Origin: an uncultured Spartobacteria bacterium
GTDB taxonomy: Bacteria > Verrucomicrobiota > Verrucomicrobiia > Chthoniobacterales > JAATET01
DNA length: 64,000 nucleotides
Reading direction: 5' to 3'
Assembly (NCBI GenBank): GCA_938011325.1
Contig: CALLUD010000013.1
Span: 7,461-71,460, forward strand
Shown here: positions 53,691-64,000 of the stretch, piece after piece
Position numbering within the stretch: the first letter of the stretch is position 1
How the letters are laid out: every line of letters starts with the position of its first letter
The notes under the pieces: model-generated
Database searches by the model: none
Told to the model about the DNA's origin: nothing
The model's input: the letters and a program-made list of their open reading frames with translations, nothing else
Program-made: the position numbers and the translations under genes

Positions 53691-54692
53691 ATGTCCGCTC
53701 CTCCGGAAGGATTGCCTGATTCTCCGGCACCCTGTTTTCGACCGATGCCAAACGCCCTCACCGTCCCGGTTCCCCGACAACGTCGCGTGCCGCCCGCCGT
53801 CCGGCCATCGGGCACGAATGCGCGGATGGTCCAGCTCCTTTCCGAGCTCGCGCGCGGTGAAGGCTTCCTGCCGTCGCGCCTGCCCGGAGTGCGGTTCATG
53901 CGGACCGTGCGGCACATTCCCCGCGCGCCGATTGTCTACGAGCCAAGCATCGTGATCATTGCCCAGGGACGAAAGATCGGCCACCTCGCCGGGCGCCGCT
54001 TCGTCTACGATCGCGACCACTTTCTCGTCCTTTCCATCCCCCTGCCGTTTGAATGCGAAACCTTCGGCACCCCTGACGAACCGGTCCTCGGCGTGAAGAT
54101 CGGCGTCACTCCCGCGCTCGTCACCGAGTTGCTTCTCGAAATGAACGCGACGCCGCCCGACAACGGCGCGGAAACCCTCCGCACCGCGCGCCTCGACGCG
54201 CCCATCGCCGACGCCACCGTGCGTCTCCTCGAGAGCCTGCGTTCCGACGCCGACGCACGCATTCTCGGCTCGCAGATCATCCGCGAGATCACCTACCGCG
54301 TGCTGCTCAGCGAAGCCGGCGAAATGCTGCACCCGCTCGCCGCGCCCGACAGCACGGCCGGCCGGATCCACCGCGTGCTGCATCGCATCCACACCGATTT
54401 CGCCCGCCCCCTCGACGTGCCCACCCTCGCCCGCGAAGCCGGGATGAGCGTTTCGACGTTTCACGAGCGGTTCAAGGCGGCCACCTCGTCCCCGCCCCAC
54501 CAATACCTCAAATCGATCCGCCTGCACCGCGCGCGCACGCTCATGGTCAACAACGGCATCAGTGCCGCCGAAGCCGCCGCCCGGGTCGGCTACGAGAGCG
54601 CGTCGCAATTCAGCCGCGAATTCAAACGCTTCTTCGGCACCACCCCCGCCGCCGCCGCCCAATCCCTCCGCCAGACCCTCACGCGGTTGTAA
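53691..54692 (+). CDS. AraC-family transcriptional regulator (AraC N-terminal sensing domain plus HTH)
   Basis: 333 aa, divergent from the SDR gene. C-terminal HTH: LAREAGMSVSTFHERFK...VGYESASQFSREFKRFFG. An alternative start MPNALT lies at 53745. Confidence 0.85.
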   Translation: MSAPPEGLPDSPAPCFRPMPNALTVPVPRQRRVPPAVRPSGTNARMVQLLSELARGEGFLPSRLPGVRFMRTVRHIPRAPIVYEPSIVIIAQGRKIGHLAGRRFVYDRDHFLVLSIPLPFECETFGTPDEPVLGVKIGVTPALVTELLLEMNATPPDNGAETLRTARLDAPIADATVRLLESLRSDADARILGSQIIREITYRVLLSEAGEMLHPLAAPDSTAGRIHRVLHRIHTDFARPLDVPTLAREAGMSVSTFHERFKAATSSPPHQYLKSIRLHRARTLMVNNGISAAEAAARVGYESASQFSREFKRFFGTTPAAAAQSLRQTLTRL

Positions 54693-54829
54693 CTCACGTC
54701 ACGGACGCGGAAGGGCGCGGAAGGTGCGCGCTGCAGGTTTATCGCCCTCGACGCCCGTCACCCGCCCTGGTCGCCTTTCGATTGAACGCGATTACCTCGC
54801 GCTGCATGGTCTGCTCCGGGAGGCAAACA

Positions 54830-55597
54830 ATGAAGGTTCATTCACAGGTGCCGGGTTCACCCCTGCGCGGAGTCGTCAGTCGATTTCTCGTGGTCGAATC
54901 GCCCGAGGAACGAAGTGACATGCATTTGCCCGAGACAGGATTCATCGCCGCCTTTCGTCTGAGCGGAGAATGCCAGGTTGGCGATCGGCGATTTGCCTCG
55001 CCGGCGATTCTGACCGGCTTGACCGATCATCTGCGTCGCCACCAACACGGTCGCAACAACACGACACTGGTCGTTCATTTCACGCCGCTGGGGGCGTCGG
55101 CATTCACGCACGAAGCACTCGACGGATTGTGGAATGCCAGCGTGGATCTCGGCAACGTGATCGGCAGCGCCGCCGAGGTCAGCGAAGTCGTCGAGCGTCT
55201 CTTAGAGGCGCCTGATCCCACGCAGCGCATCGAAATTGTCGAGCGCTTCTTGCTCGCCCGGCTCGACAGGCACAAGCCTGATCCTTTGGTGAGCGCCGCG
55301 ATCGATTGGATGGCCGAGCATGTGCCGGCCCCCGCGCGCGTTAGGGACTTGGTGCGCCACATCGGATTGAGCCAAAGCGCGCTCGAACGCCGCTTCCGCC
55401 GGGTGGTGGGCGCCGCGCCGAAGCGTTTTCTCTCCCTGCTCCGCCTCAAGCGGGCTGCGCAACTCCTTCAAAGCGGGACGTCGCTGACGACAGCTGCGCA
55501 CGCCGCCGGCTACTGCGACCAGGCACATTTCAATCATGAGTTCCGACGCATGGCCGGTCTCACGCCGGGCGAGTATTTTACCCAGGCACGAGCCTGA
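54830..55597 (+). CDS. AraC-family transcriptional regulator
   Basis: Preferred start MKVHSQVPG at 54830; the track start is 54782. C-terminal HTH: VRHIGLSQSALERRFRR...AGYCDQAHFNHEFRRMAGLTPGEY. Confidence 0.82.
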   Translation: MKVHSQVPGSPLRGVVSRFLVVESPEERSDMHLPETGFIAAFRLSGECQVGDRRFASPAILTGLTDHLRRHQHGRNNTTLVVHFTPLGASAFTHEALDGLWNASVDLGNVIGSAAEVSEVVERLLEAPDPTQRIEIVERFLLARLDRHKPDPLVSAAIDWMAEHVPAPARVRDLVRHIGLSQSALERRFRRVVGAAPKRFLSLLRLKRAAQLLQSGTSLTTAAHAAGYCDQAHFNHEFRRMAGLTPGEYFTQARA

Positions 55598-56567: not shown

Positions 56568-57407
56568 CTAAAACTCGCGCCAGATGGCCACTTTGAATCC
56601 TCCTCCGCCACCGGTCGCCCGGCCCGCCACGGAAAAATACGGTCCGGCCTGAATCGTCCAGTGCCGCGCCGGGTGCACGAGCAGAGAGCCGCCAATCTTG
56701 ATGAGGTCGAAATCAGTGGTGAGCAGGATGTTGTTGCCGACGTATTGAGGCTGGTCATTGCCCAGGCCGTGAATGCCACTTGCCTCGAGGTAGTAAATTT
56801 CCAGCCAATCGGTGAGGTGCAACCCCGCGGTGACATACCAGCGCAGCTCGTCGGCGGGCGCACCCGTGCGCAGGCGAAAGCCGGCTCCCGCGTCCACAAA
56901 GCCCCAACGCTCGAACACCTTGTAACTCGAACCAATATAGTAGGCGAGTTCCACGTCCGTCTGCCCGTTGCCCAGCGCCGGCTGCACGTTCACATAATAG
57001 GGTCCGGGAATTTTCACCGTGAGCTGGAGCGACTGCGGAATTCGTTCGAAAAGCTGATAGCGCAATCCGACCTCCTGGTCGGCGGGGCCAAAGTTGTTCT
57101 GACGTCCAAAGCGATTCTCGAACGTCAACGCGTCGAGGAAGAAGTTCCCGATCAAGGTGAGCCGCTTGAAGAGGCCGTATTCGACATAGAGGTTCAGCTC
57201 GTTCTTGATGAACCGCCCCTCGTAGCCAAACGGCTCGAGATGCCAGCCGTCTCCGAATTGAGTGTCCGTGCCGTAGAAGTAATACGTCAGAATCGAGAGA
57301 CCGCGCCCCTCGGGTTGTGCCCAGGCTCCTGCGTGCAGGTTTCCCGGTAGAAGAAGAAGAACGAGCCCTGTCGCGAGGGTGGATAATTTCCGGCAAATAG
57401 GCGGCAC
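56568..57407 (-). CDS. Predicted outer-membrane beta-barrel protein, divergent from the synthase operon
   Basis: Alternating-pattern strands (LSILTYYFYG, LNLYVEYGL, VELAYYIGSSYKV, ...) and a C-terminus GFKVAIWREF ending in Phe. A GTG start (complement of 57405-57407) gives signal peptide (M)PPICRKLSTLATGLVLLLLPGNLHA. The track ATG at 57479 adds 24 non-signal residues. Confidence 0.65.
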   Translation of the reverse strand: MPPICRKLSTLATGLVLLLLPGNLHAGAWAQPEGRGLSILTYYFYGTDTQFGDGWHLEPFGYEGRFIKNELNLYVEYGLFKRLTLIGNFFLDALTFENRFGRQNNFGPADQEVGLRYQLFERIPQSLQLTVKIPGPYYVNVQPALGNGQTDVELAYYIGSSYKVFERWGFVDAGAGFRLRTGAPADELRWYVTAGLHLTDWLEIYYLEASGIHGLGNDQPQYVGNNILLTTDFDLIKIGGSLLVHPARHWTIQAGPYFSVAGRATGGGGGFKVAIWREF

Positions 57408-58662
57408 GGCGCGGATTCTTAGCTTGCCTGACCGGAGTCGCAAGGCACTATCTGCACGGATTTGCTCAACAGAAGCCAACGAATTGGAAGCATCCCCGAA
57501 TCGTCAAGCCATCGTCCACTATCTCCAGACGAATCGTTTCTGTGAAGGACTGCCGTTTCCGATCCTCGAGGCTCTGGCCAGCTCGATCACCGTCCTGGAA
57601 ATGGAAAAGGATGCCGTTCTTTTCGAGGACGAGGACCTCACGCACTCCGTCCATCTCGTCGCCTCGGGGGAAATCGGGTTTCTGATTCGCATGACCCCCA
57701 GCTCGGGCTTCACGGAAATCGCCCGCGTCGGGAAGAACGAATTTTTTGGCGAAGGCGCGGCCATCGACGACCTCGCCGCCCAGGAACAGAGTCCCGGCGC
57801 AAACGGCTTCATCCGCCGCTCGGCGCGCAGCGCGCGCATCATCTGCCGGGAAAAGGCGCTCCTTCTCCGGCTGCCGGCCACGGAGTTTGAGCGCCTGCTC
57901 CGCGAGCACCCCCTGCTGCTCTGCCGGAATCTTCTGCGTTCGTCGTCCGACAAGCTCCGCATGGGCGTGCAGCGCACGTTCGACGAAGCCCTCGCCCGGG
58001 AAAGCCGGCACCTGCTGGCCCACATCAGCCACTGGCTCGCGCGCCGCATGGAGAATCCGGTGTCCACCCTCCGCCTCCAATCGGGCCTCCTCGCGGAACA
58101 GGACGCCGCCCGATCGGCAGCCCCCATCGCCGCCGCAACCGACGACCTCGCGGCCACCCTCCATTCCGTGGCGCGCCTGGCCGGCACCGCCCGGCAACGC
58201 CTCACGTGGGAAACCTTCGCCGTGCGCGACTGGTGGAACGAGACCGAATCCGGGGTCCTCGACCAACTCGAGCCGCGCGGGATCGCTCTCGACAGCTACC
58301 TCGAGGACTTCACCGTGGAATCGAGCCGTCCCCTGCTGCGCGACGCCATGCTCGACCTGCTCGCGGGTGTCGCCCGGCTCAACCCCGGGGAGGGTCGGAT
58401 CGGCCTCCGGGCCGGCCGCCACCACGGGCATGCCGAGATTCACGTCCACGCCATCCTGCCCGGTTTCAATGACGTCGTGGCCCGACGGCTGTTTGAGCCC
58501 TTCTCCGGCGACGGGATCGACCACGAAGCCGCCGTCCGCTTCGCGCTTGCCCGTCAGACCGCCCGGCGCCTGGGCGGCGACACCACGGTGAAGCGTCGCG
58601 ATGGCGAACGCGTCACCTTCGCCCTTACCCTGCCCACCCGTCGCCCTGATGCATCTGTTTGA
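57379..58662 (+). CDS. Cyclic-nucleotide-binding domain protein fused to a histidine-kinase-like module with a degenerate ATP-binding domain
   Basis: 427 aa. CAP_ED-like LEMEKDAVLFEDEDLTHSVHLVASGE...FFGEGA...RSARIIC. DHp-like LLAHISHWLARRMENPVSTL. The C-terminal HATPase-like fold ends ...GERVTFALTLP, but I could not find the canonical N, G1 or G2 boxes. The start is uncertain (ATG 57379 or TTG 57424). Confidence 0.7.
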   Translation: MDNFRQIGGTARILSLPDRSRKALSARICSTEANELEASPNRQAIVHYLQTNRFCEGLPFPILEALASSITVLEMEKDAVLFEDEDLTHSVHLVASGEIGFLIRMTPSSGFTEIARVGKNEFFGEGAAIDDLAAQEQSPGANGFIRRSARSARIICREKALLLRLPATEFERLLREHPLLLCRNLLRSSSDKLRMGVQRTFDEALARESRHLLAHISHWLARRMENPVSTLRLQSGLLAEQDAARSAAPIAAATDDLAATLHSVARLAGTARQRLTWETFAVRDWWNETESGVLDQLEPRGIALDSYLEDFTVESSRPLLRDAMLDLLAGVARLNPGEGRIGLRAGRHHGHAEIHVHAILPGFNDVVARRLFEPFSGDGIDHEAAVRFALARQTARRLGGDTTVKRRDGERVTFALTLPTRRPDASV

Positions 58663-59143
58663 TCACGGCCACCGCCATCCGCTCCTGATCGTCTGCAGCG
58701 ATGAAGCTCTGGCAAAATCCATGGCCCGGGCGGCGCCGGAGGACGTGTTCGAGATCACGATCGTTCCCACCCGCGGGGCCGCCCTGGACGCCCCGTCTCT
58801 CGGTGATTACCGCAGCTTCATTGTCGATTCGGTCCTGCCCGACGCGACCGGGGCGGACTTCGTTCACGAGCTTCGCGGGAAAAGGATCCAGGCACCGGTG
58901 CTGTTGTTGCGCTCGCTCGACTCCCCCGCCGGGCCCCGCGAGGCGGACGCCACTCTCACGAAACCGCTTTCGCTGCCGGAATACCGCCGCACCGTCGCGG
59001 AGCTGTTCCTCGACGGCGAGCCATTACGGGAACTCGGCCGCCGCCCGCAGCGGCGCCTGGCCCTTCACCCCGCGGCGGTCGTCGTTCCCCTCCTCCTCGG
59101 CGCCGGCATCGTTCTCACCTGGTGGCTCCTTCAAATCCCGTGA
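58649..59143 (+). CDS. Receiver (REC)-like domain protein with a C-terminal transmembrane anchor
   Basis: Preferred start MHLFDHGHRHPLLIVCSDE at 58649, overlapping the upstream gene by 14 nt. Contains FIVDSVLPDATG (phospho-Asp position), LLLRS and TKPL. C-terminal TM: LALHPAAVVVPLLLGAGIVLTWWLL. Confidence 0.65.
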   Translation: MHLFDHGHRHPLLIVCSDEALAKSMARAAPEDVFEITIVPTRGAALDAPSLGDYRSFIVDSVLPDATGADFVHELRGKRIQAPVLLLRSLDSPAGPREADATLTKPLSLPEYRRTVAELFLDGEPLRELGRRPQRRLALHPAAVVVPLLLGAGIVLTWWLLQIP

Positions 59144-61119
59144 ACACACTCCGCCTGCTCCTCATCCTCCTGCTCGTGGCCCGCGTGGCTGCGGCCCGGC
59201 CGATCGAAGTTCCGACCACGCTCGACGATGCCGGCATCGCGCAACCCGACCGCGTCCACGGCACGCAAACCATAAAGGACTACTTTCTGCCGCTGCCCTC
59301 GCGTGTCTTCGACGCCGCGCGCTCCCGCATCCTGGTCGAGGTGCAGCCCTCTCCGTTCGTCCACCCCGCCTCGCTGATCACGATTCTCATCAACGACCGT
59401 CCCGTCGACACCGCTCGCGCGGGCACAGGCGGAGTCGTCGTTCTCGAAGGTCCCATCCCTCCCGGCACCCGCAACGACGACCCGAGCCGGAACATCCTCA
59501 AGCTTTCGGTAAAGACCCACCTCCGCCCCGTCGATCCCAACACCGAGCTCGACGACGAATCCGCCTGGGTGGAAGTGCTGCCGTCCTCCACCTTCACCTG
59601 CCGGTTCGACGCGTCGTCGCCCGACTGGACCGCGCTCGGACGACTTGCAATCACGCTGCGTCCGCAAATCGAGGTCGTGCTCCCGAAGGAATCCGCCGCC
59701 CCGCAGATCGACCTCGCCCTCAAGACCGCCGCCTGGGCCGCCCGCCACGCTCCGGCGAGCCGGCTGCGGTTTCTCGACGAGGACGCTCCCGACGCCAAAG
59801 ACGCGGACCGCTTCGTGATCGAGGCCGCGACCGCCGGCCGCCCGCCGGTTGACATCACCATCTCGGAAACAGGCCGCATAATTCATTTGCGTGCCGGCAA
59901 CGAAGCCGAAGCTGCCAACACGTGGAGCACGCTGCTCGCCGCCGCGAACGTTCCGCTGCCCGGACCCGCGTGGAACGCATCGCAGGCCGCTCCGGAGGCC
60001 ACCTCGGCGGACGGCGGCCGCTTCGTCGGCGATCTCGACGCATCAGCGCTGGCCATAAACCGCGGCGCCGGCGACACGAGCCGGAGCTTCCGGTTCGACG
60101 CTGCAAAAATTTCTCCGAAACCCGCCAGCCTCTCGCTGCACCTGGCCGGCACGATTTCCCCGATCCACAAAGGCGCCGAGCCCATCGTCGCAGTGCTCCT
60201 CAACGACGAGTTGGTGTTCTCCGAGCGGCTTCCCGCCGGCTCGCGCGCGTTCGACTGGGAGATCCCGCTTGCCGCATCCCAGCTCCGCGGCAACAACGAA
60301 GTCACCGTGCGGATCAGCCCGCCCGCCGGTGACCGCACCCCGTATCTCTGGCAGATCAGCCGGGCAAGCACGCTCCGTGTGCGGGAACCCGCCGAGGCGA
60401 AGAAACCCACCGGCCTCCTCGAAGCGGCGCGGTATTTCGCGCCCGAGCCGTTCCTAGTCTGGCTCGCGCGACCCACGGACTGGCGCGTCGCCGCGTTCGC
60501 AGTCGCCTGGCTCCAACGTGTGAATCCGGCCGTCCAGCTCACGCCGCGCCTGACGACAGCGCTGGACGAAAACGTGTCTGCCGTCGTCGTGGGCGGACTT
60601 ACCGGCAAACAGCCGGAGGCCCTCACGCAACCGCCGGTCACATTTGGAGAAAACACGCTGACAATCCACTCGCGGCCCGGCATGCCCGCGCTGACGCTCT
60701 CGCCTGCGACGTCGCTCGGCATCTGGCAGCTTGGGGAGTCCGCGAAGGGCGCTCCGGTTCTGCTCGCCGACGGCTGGGGGCCCGCCGCTGCCGCCGCGCT
60801 TGAAAGCGTCTCCGCGCAGATGGCCGACTCGGCCTGGGTCGAGGGCGGGGACGCCATCGTCGGCGACGGCTCGACCCCGGTGCTCACCTTTGCCACGCGC
60901 GACACGCCTCTGCCACCCGTCGACGCCCTGCCCGAGGCGCTCGCCGCACCGACTTCCGCCGGGGCCATGCAAAACGCTCCGGCCCCGGCCGGCGGAATCG
61001 AATCCGCCCACGACGGCACACGGCATCTACGCTGGGTGGTGATCGCCGCACTCTGGATCGTGTTATCGGCCGTCATTGTCTGGATCTTCGAGCAGGGACG
61101 CCGCCGGGCGGTGAACTGA
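59140..61119 (+). CDS. BcsB-like periplasmic synthase subunit candidate (signal peptide plus C-terminal TM anchor)
   Basis: A GTG at 59140 overlaps the upstream stop (GTGA) and gives (M)NTLRLLLILLLVARVAAA; the alternative ATG is at 59122. Two internal segments fit the BcsB pattern (ASLITILINDRPVD and IVAVLLNDELVFSERLP). C-terminal TM: LRWVVIAALWIVLSAVIVWIF. The family call is tentative. Confidence 0.55.
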   Translation: MNTLRLLLILLLVARVAAARPIEVPTTLDDAGIAQPDRVHGTQTIKDYFLPLPSRVFDAARSRILVEVQPSPFVHPASLITILINDRPVDTARAGTGGVVVLEGPIPPGTRNDDPSRNILKLSVKTHLRPVDPNTELDDESAWVEVLPSSTFTCRFDASSPDWTALGRLAITLRPQIEVVLPKESAAPQIDLALKTAAWAARHAPASRLRFLDEDAPDAKDADRFVIEAATAGRPPVDITISETGRIIHLRAGNEAEAANTWSTLLAAANVPLPGPAWNASQAAPEATSADGGRFVGDLDASALAINRGAGDTSRSFRFDAAKISPKPASLSLHLAGTISPIHKGAEPIVAVLLNDELVFSERLPAGSRAFDWEIPLAASQLRGNNEVTVRISPPAGDRTPYLWQISRASTLRVREPAEAKKPTGLLEAARYFAPEPFLVWLARPTDWRVAAFAVAWLQRVNPAVQLTPRLTTALDENVSAVVVGGLTGKQPEALTQPPVTFGENTLTIHSRPGMPALTLSPATSLGIWQLGESAKGAPVLLADGWGPAAAAALESVSAQMADSAWVEGGDAIVGDGSTPVLTFATRDTPLPPVDALPEALAAPTSAGAMQNAPAPAGGIESAHDGTRHLRWVVIAALWIVLSAVIVWIFEQGRRRAVN

Positions 61120-62951
61120 TGCAGCTCGTCAACCATCTCTTCGAACGCGGAATCATCGACCCGGCTGCGCGCCGTCATGTCGAGCGACAGGCGGAAAGAT
61201 GGGGCGTGCCTGCCCACGGGCTTCTCCGCACGCTCGGCCTCGTCTCGGCCGAGTGCTACCTCGAACACTACGAACGCGTGTATCGCATCCCGCGTGCCGA
61301 GGCCGCGAACCTGCGGCTCTCGGAGGAGCTCGCGTCCATGGCTCCCTGGGAAACCTGGCGCGACGCGCTCGCCCTACCGGTCGCCCTCCCCGACGGCACG
61401 CCGCGCATCGCAGCGGTCGATCCCGTGAACCTGCCGCCTGCCCTGCGTGGAACGGAGGCGGTCCTCATCCTCGAGGAGGAATGGGTGGAACTCGCCGGAC
61501 GCTTCTACGGAACACCCTTTCTCGACGAGGCGATCCACGGCCTCGCCCGCGCGCATCCCCGCCTCTCCGCGCAACGCACGTTCACGACCTCCCAGCTGGT
61601 TATCGCGTGGCTGGCCGGCACCGCGATGCTCCTCGCGATCGGGCTCGCCCCCCGCATCTCATTCATCGCGCTCAACTGCGTGCTGAATGTCTTCTTCGCC
61701 ATGTGCGTCGGCTTCAAGACGCTGCTCGCCTTCGTCGGCTCCACGCGCAACGTCTCGCAAAAGGTCTCCCCGCTCGAAATCGAGCGCCTGGATGAGCGTT
61801 CGCTGCCCGTCTACACGATCCTCGTCCCGGTCTACAGGGAACCGACGGTCGTTCCGAATCTCATCCGCCAGCTCACCAGGCTCAACTACCCGCTCTGCAA
61901 GCTGGACGTGAAGGTGCTGCTTGAAGAGGGCGACGACGAAACGATCGCCGCCTTCCGCAGCGCCGCGCCACCGCCGAATTTCCACGCCCTCATCGTTCCG
62001 AACGCCCAGCCGAAGACAAAGCCCAAGGCCTGCAACTACGGCCTCTTCTTTTCCCGCGGCGAATACCTCGCCATCTACGACGCGGAGGATTTTCCCGAGC
62101 CCGACCAGCTCGAAAAGGTCGTCGCCGCCTTCCGCAAGCTCCCCGATCGCGTCGTCTGCATCCAGGGCTGCCTCAATTATTTCAACTGGCGCGACAACCT
62201 GCTCACGCGCCTGTTCACGCTCGAGTATTCGGGCTGGTTCGACTACAACCTGCCCGGCATGGAGGCGCTCAAGGTGCCGATCCCGCTCGGCGGCACGAGC
62301 AACCATTTCAAAATCGACCGCCTCCGCGAACTCGGCGCCTGGGACCCCTACAACGTCACCGAGGACGCCGACCTCGGCGTGCGCGCGAGCGCCCGCGGCT
62401 ACACCGTCGCCACGATCGACTCCACGACCTACGAGGAGGCCAACTGCGCCTACGGCAACTGGATCCGGCAGCGCTCGCGCTGGATCAAAGGCTACATGCA
62501 GACGTTCCTCGTGCACATGCGCGACCCGGTGCGGCTCATCCGCACGATCGGCCTGCGCGCCTTCCTCGGCTTCGTCCTTTTCATCGGCGGCACGCCGCTC
62601 GTCTTTCTCCTCAATCCCATTCTCTGGCTGCTCCTCGTCGTCTGGATCGCCACCGGCGCCACCGCAATCGCCGAGATCTTTCCGCCGTGGTTGTTCTACC
62701 TCGCGTTCGCCAATCTCGCGTTCGGCAACCTCATGGCGATCTACACCTGCGTGCTCGCCGTCTTCCGGCGCGGCAACTACCCGCTCGGCCTCTACGCCCT
62801 GCTGAATCCGCTTTACTGGATCCTCCACTCGATCGCCGCCTACAAGGGCCTGTGGCAGCTCATCGTGCGGCCGTTCTATTGGGAAAAAACGGTCCACGGC
62901 CTCTCGGCGCTGCCGGCGTCGTTCCACAGCGTCACGAAATCCCATGCGTAG
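61119..62951 (+). CDS. Processive family-2 glycosyltransferase (synthase type, multi-TM) with an N-terminal T2SSE_N/MshEN-like domain
   Basis: 610 aa; TGATG overlap with the upstream gene. Residues 1-115 are collinear with the GspE/PilB N-domain pattern (LVNHLFERGIIDPAARRHVERQ...LLRTLGLVSAECYLEHYERVYRIP...LALPVALPDGTPRIAAVDP). GT2 motifs: ILVPVYREP, YDAEDFP, VTEDADLG and QRSRWIKG. TM helices flank the catalytic domain. Confidence 0.85.
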   Translation: MQLVNHLFERGIIDPAARRHVERQAERWGVPAHGLLRTLGLVSAECYLEHYERVYRIPRAEAANLRLSEELASMAPWETWRDALALPVALPDGTPRIAAVDPVNLPPALRGTEAVLILEEEWVELAGRFYGTPFLDEAIHGLARAHPRLSAQRTFTTSQLVIAWLAGTAMLLAIGLAPRISFIALNCVLNVFFAMCVGFKTLLAFVGSTRNVSQKVSPLEIERLDERSLPVYTILVPVYREPTVVPNLIRQLTRLNYPLCKLDVKVLLEEGDDETIAAFRSAAPPPNFHALIVPNAQPKTKPKACNYGLFFSRGEYLAIYDAEDFPEPDQLEKVVAAFRKLPDRVVCIQGCLNYFNWRDNLLTRLFTLEYSGWFDYNLPGMEALKVPIPLGGTSNHFKIDRLRELGAWDPYNVTEDADLGVRASARGYTVATIDSTTYEEANCAYGNWIRQRSRWIKGYMQTFLVHMRDPVRLIRTIGLRAFLGFVLFIGGTPLVFLLNPILWLLLVVWIATGATAIAEIFPPWLFYLAFANLAFGNLMAIYTCVLAVFRRGNYPLGLYALLNPLYWILHSIAAYKGLWQLIVRPFYWEKTVHGLSALPASFHSVTKSHA

Positions 62952-64000
62952 AAACCTCACGCCGGCCGCCGGTTTCCTCTTCCTCGGACTGTGGGCCACC
63001 TATTGCGCCTTCGGCCTGCTGCTGGCGGAGGACTTCGGATTCCTCACCCGCGAGAATGCCGCCATTTCCGCCCGGGCCATTCTTGCCGCACACGGCGCCC
63101 CACTCTCGATGCTCACGCTCGGCGTGCCGAATCCGCCCCTCCCCTACGTTCTCGCCGTGCCCTTCGCGGCCCTTCATCTTCCCTTCCCGGCGATCTGGGT
63201 TTCGTCGCTCATGGGTGCGCTTCTCTGCACGTGGTTTTTCGTGTGGTTTCGCCGCGACGTCGCCCAGGCACCGGTCCTGATCCTTCCCCTTCTCCTGCTG
63301 CCCGTGCTCCCCGGCGTGCTCCACAGCTCGGCGGCGGGAACCCCCGCGATCGCGGCGATGGCGTTTCTCGTCTTTGCCGTTCATCTCGCGGCGCGGTTCG
63401 CGCTCGAACAGCAGACGTGGAACGACCTGCGGCGCGACGGCCGGCTGCCGGCGTGGTCCCATTCCGCGCAGGAGCAGGCCCATGCGATCCGCTTTCTCTG
63501 GGCTTCGGCCCTCCTTCTCGGCCTTGCCTCTTGCGCGCAGCCCGGTCTCCTTCTCGCGCTGCCCGTGTTTCTCCTCGCCACGCCATTCCTCCTGCCGCCG
63601 GCCGAGCGTCGAAACTGGCCGCGCATCCTCACCACGGCACTTCTCCTCTACCTTCCCATCCTCACGCTGCACGTCGCCACCGCCTCGCTGGGCGGATTGT
63701 TCACCGGCGATTTCTTTGCGCTGATGAAACCGCAGGGGGAAACGACTTTCACCGCCTGGTCACCCTCCGTCGCAAGCCTTCGCGAGCCGCTTGTGGGATT
63801 TCTCCTCACCGCACCCGTGCTCCTCTATGTCGTGATTCGCCTTCGCAACGCCGCCGTCGCGTTGCTGTGCGGCGTTCCCTTTCTCGTTCCGCTCATCGAG
63901 ACTGCGCTCGGCGGATCCCCCGACTGGCGAACGCTGCTCACCACCGCCCCGCTTCTCGCAACCGCCCTTCTCTTCCTCGGCTTTCGCTCGAACCGTTTTT
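62944..64000 (+). CDS. Polytopic membrane protein, possibly GT-C-like or a polymer-modifying/export component; the 3' end runs off the right window edge
   Basis: Hand translation, absent from the ORF track: MRRNLTPAAGFLFLGLWATYCAFGLLLAEDFGFLTRENA... The frame stays open for all 352 codons to the window end, with at least 8 hydrophobic helices. The ATG at 62944 overlaps the GT2 stop by 8 nt. Confidence 0.75.
   Translation, partial: MRRNLTPAAGFLFLGLWATYCAFGLLLAEDFGFLTRENAAISARAILAAHGAPLSMLTLGVPNPPLPYVLAVPFAALHLPFPAIWVSSLMGALLCTWFFVWFRRDVAQAPVLILPLLLLPVLPGVLHSSAAGTPAIAAMAFLVFAVHLAARFALEQQTWNDLRRDGRLPAWSHSAQEQAHAIRFLWASALLLGLASCAQPGLLLALPVFLLATPFLLPPAERRNWPRILTTALLLYLPILTLHVATASLGGLFTGDFFALMKPQGETTFTAWSPSVASLREPLVGFLLTAPVLLYVVIRLRNAAVALLCGVPFLVPLIETALGGSPDWRTLLTTAPLLATALLFLGFRSNRF

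Follow-up and report, generated by a model that had tools for sequence, protein, structure and literature searches.

The DNA analysed here is a stretch of 64,000 nucleotides (the window) from an uncultured Spartobacteria bacterium of the Chthoniobacterales (GenBank assembly GCA_938011325.1, contig CALLUD010000013.1, positions 7,461 to 71,460 of the forward strand), in which two adjacent genes encode proteins with the folds of a histidine kinase and of a response-regulator receiver and without the residues that define these families. The first protein, hereafter the pseudokinase, begins with a CAP-type cyclic nucleoside monophosphate (cNMP)-binding domain; the second is a receiver that ends in a predicted membrane anchor, and both genes stand directly before those of a BcsB-like periplasmic subunit and of a processive family-2 glycosyltransferase (GT2). 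Because the defining residues are absent, the pair cannot be counted among the functional members of the histidine-kinase or receiver families. Our favoured explanation, which we hold to be reasonably probable though well short of certain, is that a two-component pair has been put to a new use, without phosphorylation, as an adaptor that is tethered at an exopolysaccharide synthase and probably senses a nucleotide.

The loss of catalysis in the pseudokinase is apparent from its domains as well as from its individual residues. The HATPase_c domain scores 23.2-23.4 bits in Pfam, under the cut-off of 26.4, and HisKA has no Pfam match in the window protein or in any other member of what we call the pseudo-clade (the window protein, P0001-7, P0011-19, P0022 and P0024); among the 19 aligned sequences HisKA is matched in seven, a figure known as a count and not member by member, which equals the number of canonical ones. 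The AlphaFold2 model (mean predicted local distance difference test score, pLDDT, 70.7) combines a beta-barrel sensor with a long region of helical hairpin and with an alpha/beta domain, and a Foldseek comparison with the PDB returned DivL (4q20), ZraS, CpxA, RetS and HK853 at E-values of about 1e-11, which identifies the fold of the dimerisation and histidine phosphotransfer (DHp) and catalytic and ATP-binding (CA) domains. Alignment with canonical H-D-[FL]-[KR]-[NS]-P kinases places an Arg of the window protein in the phospho-acceptor column, five residues before the conserved Pro, and the same column reads R, Q, E, T, C or G across the pseudo-clade. In the CA-like domain the N-box Asn is replaced by Asp291, the G1 box D-x-G-x-G reads A-I-L-P-G, the three glycine columns of G2 read E/A/R, and the F-box RRLFEPF is retained. 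None of the four canonical positions (His, N-box Asn, G1 Asp and G2 Gly) is found in any of the 20 pseudo-clade members, the window protein included, whereas all seven canonical kinases aligned have H-D-x-[KR]-x-P, N...N, D-x-G-x-G and G-x-G-x-G; over the 157 sequences scored (the window protein and 156 search returns), 129 are canonical at three or more of the four positions. As the loss of catalytic residues is shared across the clade, it is an ancient feature rather than an alignment slip.

An earlier note on this DNA, made from the letters alone, had read the N, G1 and G2 boxes as degenerate and ATP binding as apparently lost, and both the alignment with canonical cNMP-kinases and the sub-threshold HATPase_c match agree with it; the check it proposed, an HMM or structure alignment that might reveal intact boxes misaligned by eye, was run and found the boxes absent. 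The strings it quoted (FFGEGA, RSARIIC, AHISHWLARRMENPVSTL, DLLAGVARLN, HAILPGFN and AAVRFALA; CSDE, FIVDSVLPD, LLLRS and TKPL) are all present in the two open reading frames (ORFs). The His that it cited in the DHp helix, in contrast, is not conserved: the His residues of AHISHW lie off the acceptor column, which holds Arg, and homologues carry Arg or Thr in their place (ARITRW). An anti-sigma-type GHKL kinase, a group whose members keep the N, G1 and G2 boxes, was considered as an identity and rejected because those boxes are absent. Judged by its residues, the protein is unable to bind ATP canonically or to accept a phosphoryl group, and it fits the definition of a pseudo-histidine kinase (PMC12632262); it is presumably soluble and dimeric. 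Two invariant motifs in the CA-like domain, GRHHG (residues 311-315) and VKRR (370-372), have no counterpart in canonical relatives and are possible new binding surfaces for a metal, an anionic ligand or a partner.

Close relatives of the pseudokinase are few. A profile search of 1.84 billion representative proteins gave ten representatives at E<1e-30 and a few weaker ones, after which came ordinary cNMP-HisKA-HATPase kinases, about 370 aa long, in the hundreds, and the NCBI annotation of the relatives goes no further than "cyclic nucleotide-binding domain-containing protein". The contigs of GTDB species representatives yielded no pseudokinase relative in a profile search and apparently include neither the window's genome nor its near kin, the relatives existing as NCBI proteins from metagenome-assembled genomes (MAGs), and a scan of metagenome contigs with the alignment of close pseudokinases returned 13 distant cNMP proteins only, the generic EFFGE pattern having swamped the result.

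The second protein is also recognisable as a receiver by its fold and degenerate in its active site. Response_reg reaches 16.2 bits against a Pfam cut-off of 30.2, while similarity to receivers is found with NCBIfam (E 4e-8) and with the CtrA receiver of the PDB (E 8.5e-5), and the AlphaFold2 model (mean pLDDT 69) has the (beta-alpha)5 fold, with Foldseek TM-scores of 0.73-0.83 to the CtrA and PhoB receivers. Helix alpha4 is about five residues shorter in the window's clade and absent from the model, which ends in a 21-residue helix (141-161). Three residues of the active-site quintet (DD, D, T/S and K) are gone. Both acidic positions after beta1 are occupied by C-S in the window receiver, as the replacement of the acidic pair described earlier implies, and by A-G in close homologues; R88 occupies the Thr/Ser column of the window protein, where close homologues have Asp/Glu, and the conserved Ser comes one residue later; the phosphorylation-site Asp (D60) and the Lys-Pro (K105-P106) are kept and are invariant in the close clade. 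Hence, of the Asp, Ser and Lys that the same source had listed as retained, the Asp and the Lys stand and the Ser does not. By these positions the window receiver is a pseudo-receiver in the sense of PMC12632262, namely a receiver without at least one residue of the quintet. The 11 receiver family members compared run from those with a complete canonical quintet to those without even the Asp, the Asp site being Ala in L085, Ser in L086 and a gap in L089, which also lacks the Lys, and such a range is the pattern expected when phosphotransfer is no longer selected. Independence from phosphorylation, proposed from the ATP-binding boxes, is thereby supported beyond the original case, through the clade-wide loss of the acceptor His, the absence of acidic ligands and of Thr/Ser from the receiver, and the loss of the Asp in L085, L086 and L089.

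A hydrophobic C-terminal helix preceded by basic residues is present in all receiver family members, as in a tail anchor that would leave the receiver in the cytoplasm, and the motif that it carries in the window, G-x-G-I-x-L-T-x-W-L-L, is conserved; the predicted terminal helix and this motif uphold the single C-terminal transmembrane (TM) helix that had been noticed before. At the other end of the protein, before beta1, an invariant HLFDHGHR (residues 2-9, 58652-58675) lacks a counterpart in canonical relatives and may form a new binding surface. A role as transcription factors was rejected for the pair, because neither protein has a DNA-binding domain in Pfam and NCBIfam scans.

The sensor domain is recognised in profile searches of known families: cNMP_binding (PF00027) scores 35.6 bits, above the cut-off of 27.5, and the family profile matches the cNMP domains of PKG, PKA and CRP at E-values from 1e-22 to 1e-9, the family consensus a-r-r-a-r aligning with P-R-S-A-T of PKG. 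Both groups of ligand residues of the phosphate-binding cassette, Gly-Glu and Arg-Ser-Ala (FFGE and ARSAR), are present in the window protein, the cassette Arg being R115 of its 392 aa; the G-E is invariant in all 19 aligned sequences, and the R-S/N-A in the window's close clade. The CAP-type domain reported in the earlier note is thus borne out above the Pfam threshold, and its insertion of about 20 residues has to be corrected to a net length of about 16, since the spacing from FFGEGA to RSARIIC is 22 residues against about 6 in canonical relatives. The helix LLCRNLLRSSSDKLRMGVQRTFD, which links the sensor to the DHp region, is the best-conserved stretch of the pseudokinase and does not vary among eight close members; its RNLL motif is common to canonical cNMP-kinases.

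The association with the synthase rests on conserved gene order and on a natural fusion. Genomic context was recovered for 12 family members including the window, and contigs of sufficient length share the order barrel, pseudokinase, receiver-TM, BcsB-like, GT2, a membrane protein of about 500 aa and a GH113 hydrolase; in the nine loci with sufficient contig, the unit of the first three genes lies directly before the BcsB-like gene, followed by GT2, membrane protein and GH113 to the contig end. An orthologue of the barrel gene directly adjoins the pseudokinase gene upstream in 12 of 12 loci, always divergent except in L087 (P0015), where it is co-directional and where the contig ends inside the gene that follows the pseudokinase. 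At locus L086, a gene for a REC-GGDEF diguanylate cyclase lies convergent and immediately after the receiver gene. The ORFs of the pair are intact in the 12 loci at 20-60% identity, and a comparison of two orthologous loci gives ratios of nonsynonymous to synonymous substitution rates (dN/dS) of 0.116 (pseudokinase), 0.119 (receiver), 0.131 (BcsB-like protein) and 0.062 (GT2), which places both genes of the pair under purifying selection much like that on the BcsB-like gene; conservation over 12 loci with a dN/dS of about 0.12 does not arise by chance. The disappearance of key catalytic residues from both proteins could also be viewed as the decay of a functionless two-component remnant, but with intact reading frames and many new invariant motifs (GRHHG, VKRR, HLFDHGHR and GAGIxLTWWLL) this is scarcely credible, and it was rejected because of the dN/dS of about 0.12.

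In the lineage of P0014 and P0185 there is no receiver gene, and a TM tail of the receiver type is instead fused to the C-terminus of the pseudokinase (P0014, L084 6854-8071). The fused tail, VGGAVGLTAWMLQ, may be compared with the receiver tail VGGAISLTLWLLQ of the sister lineage L085, and in the fusion protein a Gly-rich linker stands in for the second DHp helix. As the same fusion protein occurs in three assemblies, once on a contig of 1.19 Mb, it is not an assembly artefact. It is the best available evidence that pseudokinase and receiver act together and that the membrane tether is the required output, and, along with the gene order, it supports the position beside the synthase and at the membrane that had been proposed from the window. 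The fusion also bears on a different reading, in which the pseudokinase modulates an active histidine kinase, by DHp heterodimerisation of the RetS-GacS type or by titration, and thus controls transcription, with the receiver as a decoy or sink and the synthase linked through co-expression alone. Potential partners exist in the nearest relatives, many canonical cNMP-HisKA-HATPase kinases that match the pseudokinase in length and architecture, and RetS and DivL are among the top structural matches; however, the 12 loci contain neither a canonical paralogue nor a DNA-binding regulator linked to the module, and the fact that the pseudokinase is strictly paired with a TM-anchored receiver, like its fusion to a TM tail, points to a target near the membrane. 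We therefore regard such a role as distinctly improbable.

Other observations weigh against the adaptor that we favour. The cassette insertion varies from 16 to 25 residues across the family and falls in the window model within a region of pLDDT <50 (residues 91-116), and the phosphate-binding Arg is absent in the alignment from P0013, P0015, P0016 and P0019, so that cNMP binding may be altered or lost; from the sequence, the responsiveness of the sensor domain to cyclic nucleotides is uncertain. In the MAG SKW161 the three-gene unit is on contig 9 (L086) and the cluster from BcsB-like to GH113 on contig 18 (L003), and the pair was found beside none of 80 related BcsB-like/GT2 loci of other phyla, from which it follows that the pair is a lineage-specific add-on and that the synthase in general needs no such module. 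The receivers of L083 and L088, finally, are canonical (E-D-D or D-D-D; D; S; K), and in those lineages phosphorylation by another donor is possible.

The first two of these points would suit a structural or assembly subunit that senses no ligand and scaffolds or localises the export apparatus, for example by coupling the synthase to the barrel, its cNMP-like domain being as degenerate as the kinase core: the insertion is large and variable, with a low-confidence model, several relatives have lost the Arg, and no gene is linked more tightly to the pair than the barrel gene, which stays with it even in SKW161, where the synthase cluster is elsewhere. Set against it are the invariance of G-E throughout the alignment and of R-S/N-A in the close clade, as well as the strength of conservation of the helix between sensor and DHp, which is hard to explain without signal transmission, and we consider this alternative unlikely. 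The canonical receivers bring up a working phosphorelay, either through non-canonical chemistry or with the receiver phosphorylated by an unlinked kinase or acetyl phosphate and the pseudokinase serving as phosphatase or modulator. The invariant Asp and Lys-Pro of the close clade, the full quintet of the distant members L083 and L088, and the His that P0011 and P0013 carry one residue after the canonical column would all be in line with it, but such a relay would have to work in the window with a receiver deprived of both Mg-binding acidic residues and of Thr/Ser and with a pseudokinase deprived of His, N, G1 and G2 together; moreover, most members of the close clade have Asp in place of the T/N of the HisKA phosphatase motif (H+4), and some receiver family members have no Asp at all. 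Its probability appears to us very small.

The synthase next to which the adaptor would be tethered belongs to a large and, in the literature searched, apparently uncharacterised group. In Pfam the GT2 protein matches Glyco_trans_2_3 with 77 bits and MshEN with 23.6 bits, and we take QRSRW and NVTEDADL, two strings in its alignment, to be the QxxRW and TED motifs of processive GT2 synthases. Its relatives number more than 587, share about 45-55% identity with it, and come from Bacteroidota, Cyanobacteria, Thermus, Aquificota, Synergistota and others, usually flanked by BcsB-like and polytopic membrane proteins; the BcsB-like gene adjoins the GT2 gene in most of the loci fetched, from several phyla, the barrel orthologue often lies between these two genes in other phyla, and orthologues of the membrane protein of about 500 aa (495-535 aa, no Pfam match) follow GT2 in L001, L002, L083, L084, L089, L091 and Bacteroidota loci. 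The barrel protein itself (about 280 aa) has an N-terminus like a signal peptide, ends in ...WREF and has no Pfam or NCBIfam match; its assignment as an outer-membrane barrel is a prediction from these features. The co-occurrence of barrel, membrane protein and GH113 with this GT2 family suggests a hitherto uncharacterised synthase-dependent polysaccharide system, possibly of a beta-mannan-like polymer, a guess prompted by the classification of GH113 in CAZy as a family of beta-mannanases. A literature search returned no described system of a cNMP-pseudokinase with exopolysaccharide, no description of this pair, and none of this GH113/BcsB-like cluster; the cluster of BcsB-like, GT2 and membrane-protein genes is widespread nonetheless.

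Control of synthase-dependent polysaccharide secretion is dominated by cyclic diguanylate (c-di-GMP), and the state of the MshEN-like module is relevant for this reason. The module covers GT2 residues 1-130 (61119-61508), of which the first 53 correspond to the c-di-GMP-binding half of MshEN; in NfrB the MshEN domain is reportedly C-terminal. The published 24-residue c-di-GMP motif, even when relaxed, is unmatched in the window GT2, where RLG has given way to QLV (first half) and PAH (second half), and it is likewise unmatched in all GT2 proteins of the window clade and in the Bacteroidota and cyanobacterial orthologues, whereas in Thermus, HR37, Aquificota and a Desulfobacterales MAG the orthologues do conform to it (compare L073, L037, L018, L030 and L023). 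Loss of the motif in the window clade leaves room for another regulatory input, and one may speculate that the dead pair supplies what GT2 itself can no longer sense; this compensation is weakened by L003, a Chthoniobacterales locus without the pair that has the same degenerate motif. A more specific proposal, that in this Chthoniobacterales lineage the synthase is gated after translation by cAMP or cGMP rather than by c-di-GMP, with a dead pair relaying the signal and its docking interface and tail anchor taking the place of the ancestral MshEN switch, we put forward as possible but doubtful; if true, it would be a case of a complete two-component system turned into an allosteric adaptor. A cyclic-mononucleotide input at the protein level would be a regulatory logic different from that of c-di-GMP.

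The adaptor could operate as follows. The pair would be a dedicated accessory module of a machine made of the BcsB-like subunit, GT2, the polytopic membrane protein, the GH113 hydrolase and the outer-membrane barrel. A ligand, for which cAMP or cGMP is the first guess, would bind the sensor domain and alter the conformation of DHp and CA; this catalytically silent core would hold the tethered pseudo-receiver by the surfaces once used for docking between kinase and receiver, and the altered engagement of the two would act through the conserved TM helix or by direct contact with the cytosolic domains of the synthase. In this way the module would switch or assemble the synthase complex after translation and with no phosphotransfer. 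What was observed are the folds, the residue loss, the conservation, the linkage and the fusion described above; the identity of the ligand, any physical contact and the sign of the effect, activating or inhibiting, we infer.

The features of the locus are collected in Table 1. The two genes appear in the ORF list as frames 57379-58662 and 58601-59143, and both of these starts are too far upstream. The start of the pseudokinase gene at 57379, a GTG, given in the earlier note was accordingly not confirmed: TTG 57484 is used by homologues and by nine of the 12 full-length members of the 90%-identity cluster (392 aa), the other three being called at 427 aa, and with this start the overlap with the divergent barrel gene disappears. 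The receiver gene, whose start was set from homologues and gene calls, begins at ATG 58649, 14 nt inside the end of the upstream gene, and the BcsB-like gene has an alternative start, GTG 59140, that gives a GTGA overlap with the receiver stop. The consecutive overlaps of 14 and 4-22 nt are like those of translationally coupled operons. The true start of the barrel gene is probably about 20 codons downstream of that of the longest ORF. An Rfam scan of the window found no riboswitch or other RNA, and a scan of it for promoters and terminators performed no better than on shuffled sequences. A few kb upstream of the operon, the two adjacent ORFs at 53691-54692 and 54782-55597 (+) have C-termini that by eye resemble AraC-type helix-turn-helix regions (e.g., ...SQFSREFKRFFGTTP).

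Table 1. Genes, domains and motifs of the pseudokinase/pseudo-receiver locus, in window positions.
Feature	Position	Strand	Basis or remark
Divergent gene of predicted outer-membrane beta-barrel	56568..57479	-	Third conserved member of the module
Pseudo-histidine kinase with N-terminal cNMP-binding domain, 392 aa, TTG start	57484..58662	+	Start, domains, fold, catalytic columns
CAP-type cNMP-binding beta-barrel domain	57532..57906	+	Pfam PF00027, 35.6-35.9 bits
Phosphate-binding cassette FFGEGA ... ARSARIIC with low-confidence insertion of ~16 residues	57742-57846	+	Within the cNMP domain
Signalling-helix segment LLCRNLLRSSSDKLRMGVQRTFD, link from sensor to DHp	57916..57984	+	Invariant in 8 close family members
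Degenerate H-box WLARRMENPVSTL; Arg187 (58042-58044) in the phospho-acceptor His column	58033..58071	+	Alignment
CA-like (Bergerat-fold) domain without ATP-binding residues	58210..58638	+	Sub-threshold HATPase_c, column table
Tail-anchored pseudo-receiver, 164 aa	58649..59143	+	Sequence similarity, AlphaFold2 and Foldseek
C-terminal transmembrane helix AAVVVPLLLGAGIVLTWWLLQ after basic stretch RRPQRR	59069..59131	+	Predicted helix 141-161
BcsB-like periplasmic subunit with C-terminal tail anchor	59122..61119	+	Pfam BcsB, 23.6 bits (cut-off 21)
Processive family-2 glycosyltransferase (GT2 synthase), 610 aa, with N-terminal MshEN-like module	61119..62951	+	Pfam
Polytopic inner-membrane protein of no assigned family, cut by the window end	62944..64000	+	Translation; orthologues follow GT2

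To our knowledge, there is no well-described case in which kinase and receiver partners have degenerated together, and the literature searched contained none in which both two-component partners had done so. Pseudo-histidine kinases have been recognised as a concept (Collins & Childers 2021, as summarised in PMC12632262), and each of the two pseudo-classes is known, although how pseudo-kinases and pseudo-receivers switch is largely unknown (PMC12632262). The present pair offers a compact system in which to study this, as it combines a putative input domain, a membrane tether, a target in the synthase operon and natural variants with canonical, Asp-less and deleted receivers. The nearest relatives of the pseudokinase are the canonical cNMP_binding-HisKA-HATPase_c kinases of about 370 aa (P0023 and P0025-P0030), which resemble it in length, domain order and RNLL helix and can be aligned with it from end to end; these kinases keep H-D-x-[KR]-x-P, N-L-x-x-N-A, D-x-G-P-G and G-T-G-L-G, of which the window clade has none, and unlike them the pseudokinase is paired with a tail-anchored receiver in a polysaccharide operon.

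Among pseudo-kinases, DivL of Caulobacter is comparable in that a histidine-kinase fold has lost catalysis and the kinase-receiver interface is reused without phosphotransfer (PMC4211667). DivL keeps its CA domain and senses the phosphorylated canonical receiver DivK (PMC4211667), whereas in the window both partners are degenerate, the input is of the cNMP type, the partner is anchored in the membrane and the context is that of a polysaccharide synthase. Pseudo-receiver domains in general likewise miss residues of the quintet (PMC12632262), DD and T in the case of the window receiver, which differs from them in being stand-alone, tail-anchored, shortened in alpha4 and encoded together with a matching pseudokinase. 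As for the synthase, an MshEN-like module fused to a processive GT2 also occurs in MshEN-GT2 synthases regulated by c-di-GMP, such as NfrB (for the MshEN domain, PMC5013675), but the window clade fails the 2 x 24-residue motif of that domain even when it is relaxed. A parallel in logic is provided by E. coli BcsE, in which a second messenger is sensed by degenerate NTPase*, REC* and GGDEF* domains; the single-pass protein BcsF brings BcsE to the cellulose synthase, close to the tail anchors of BcsB (PMC11470070). This likeness is a functional analogy with no sequence relationship, and neither protein of the pair has a GGDEF or GIL match in Pfam or NCBIfam; besides, the ligand domain of the window pair is of the CAP type and not a c-di-GMP I-site, and its tether is part of the receiver protein itself. 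The pair is, in sum, a variation on the known logic of pseudo-histidine kinases, of pseudo-receivers and of systems like BcsE/BcsF, and not a new category.

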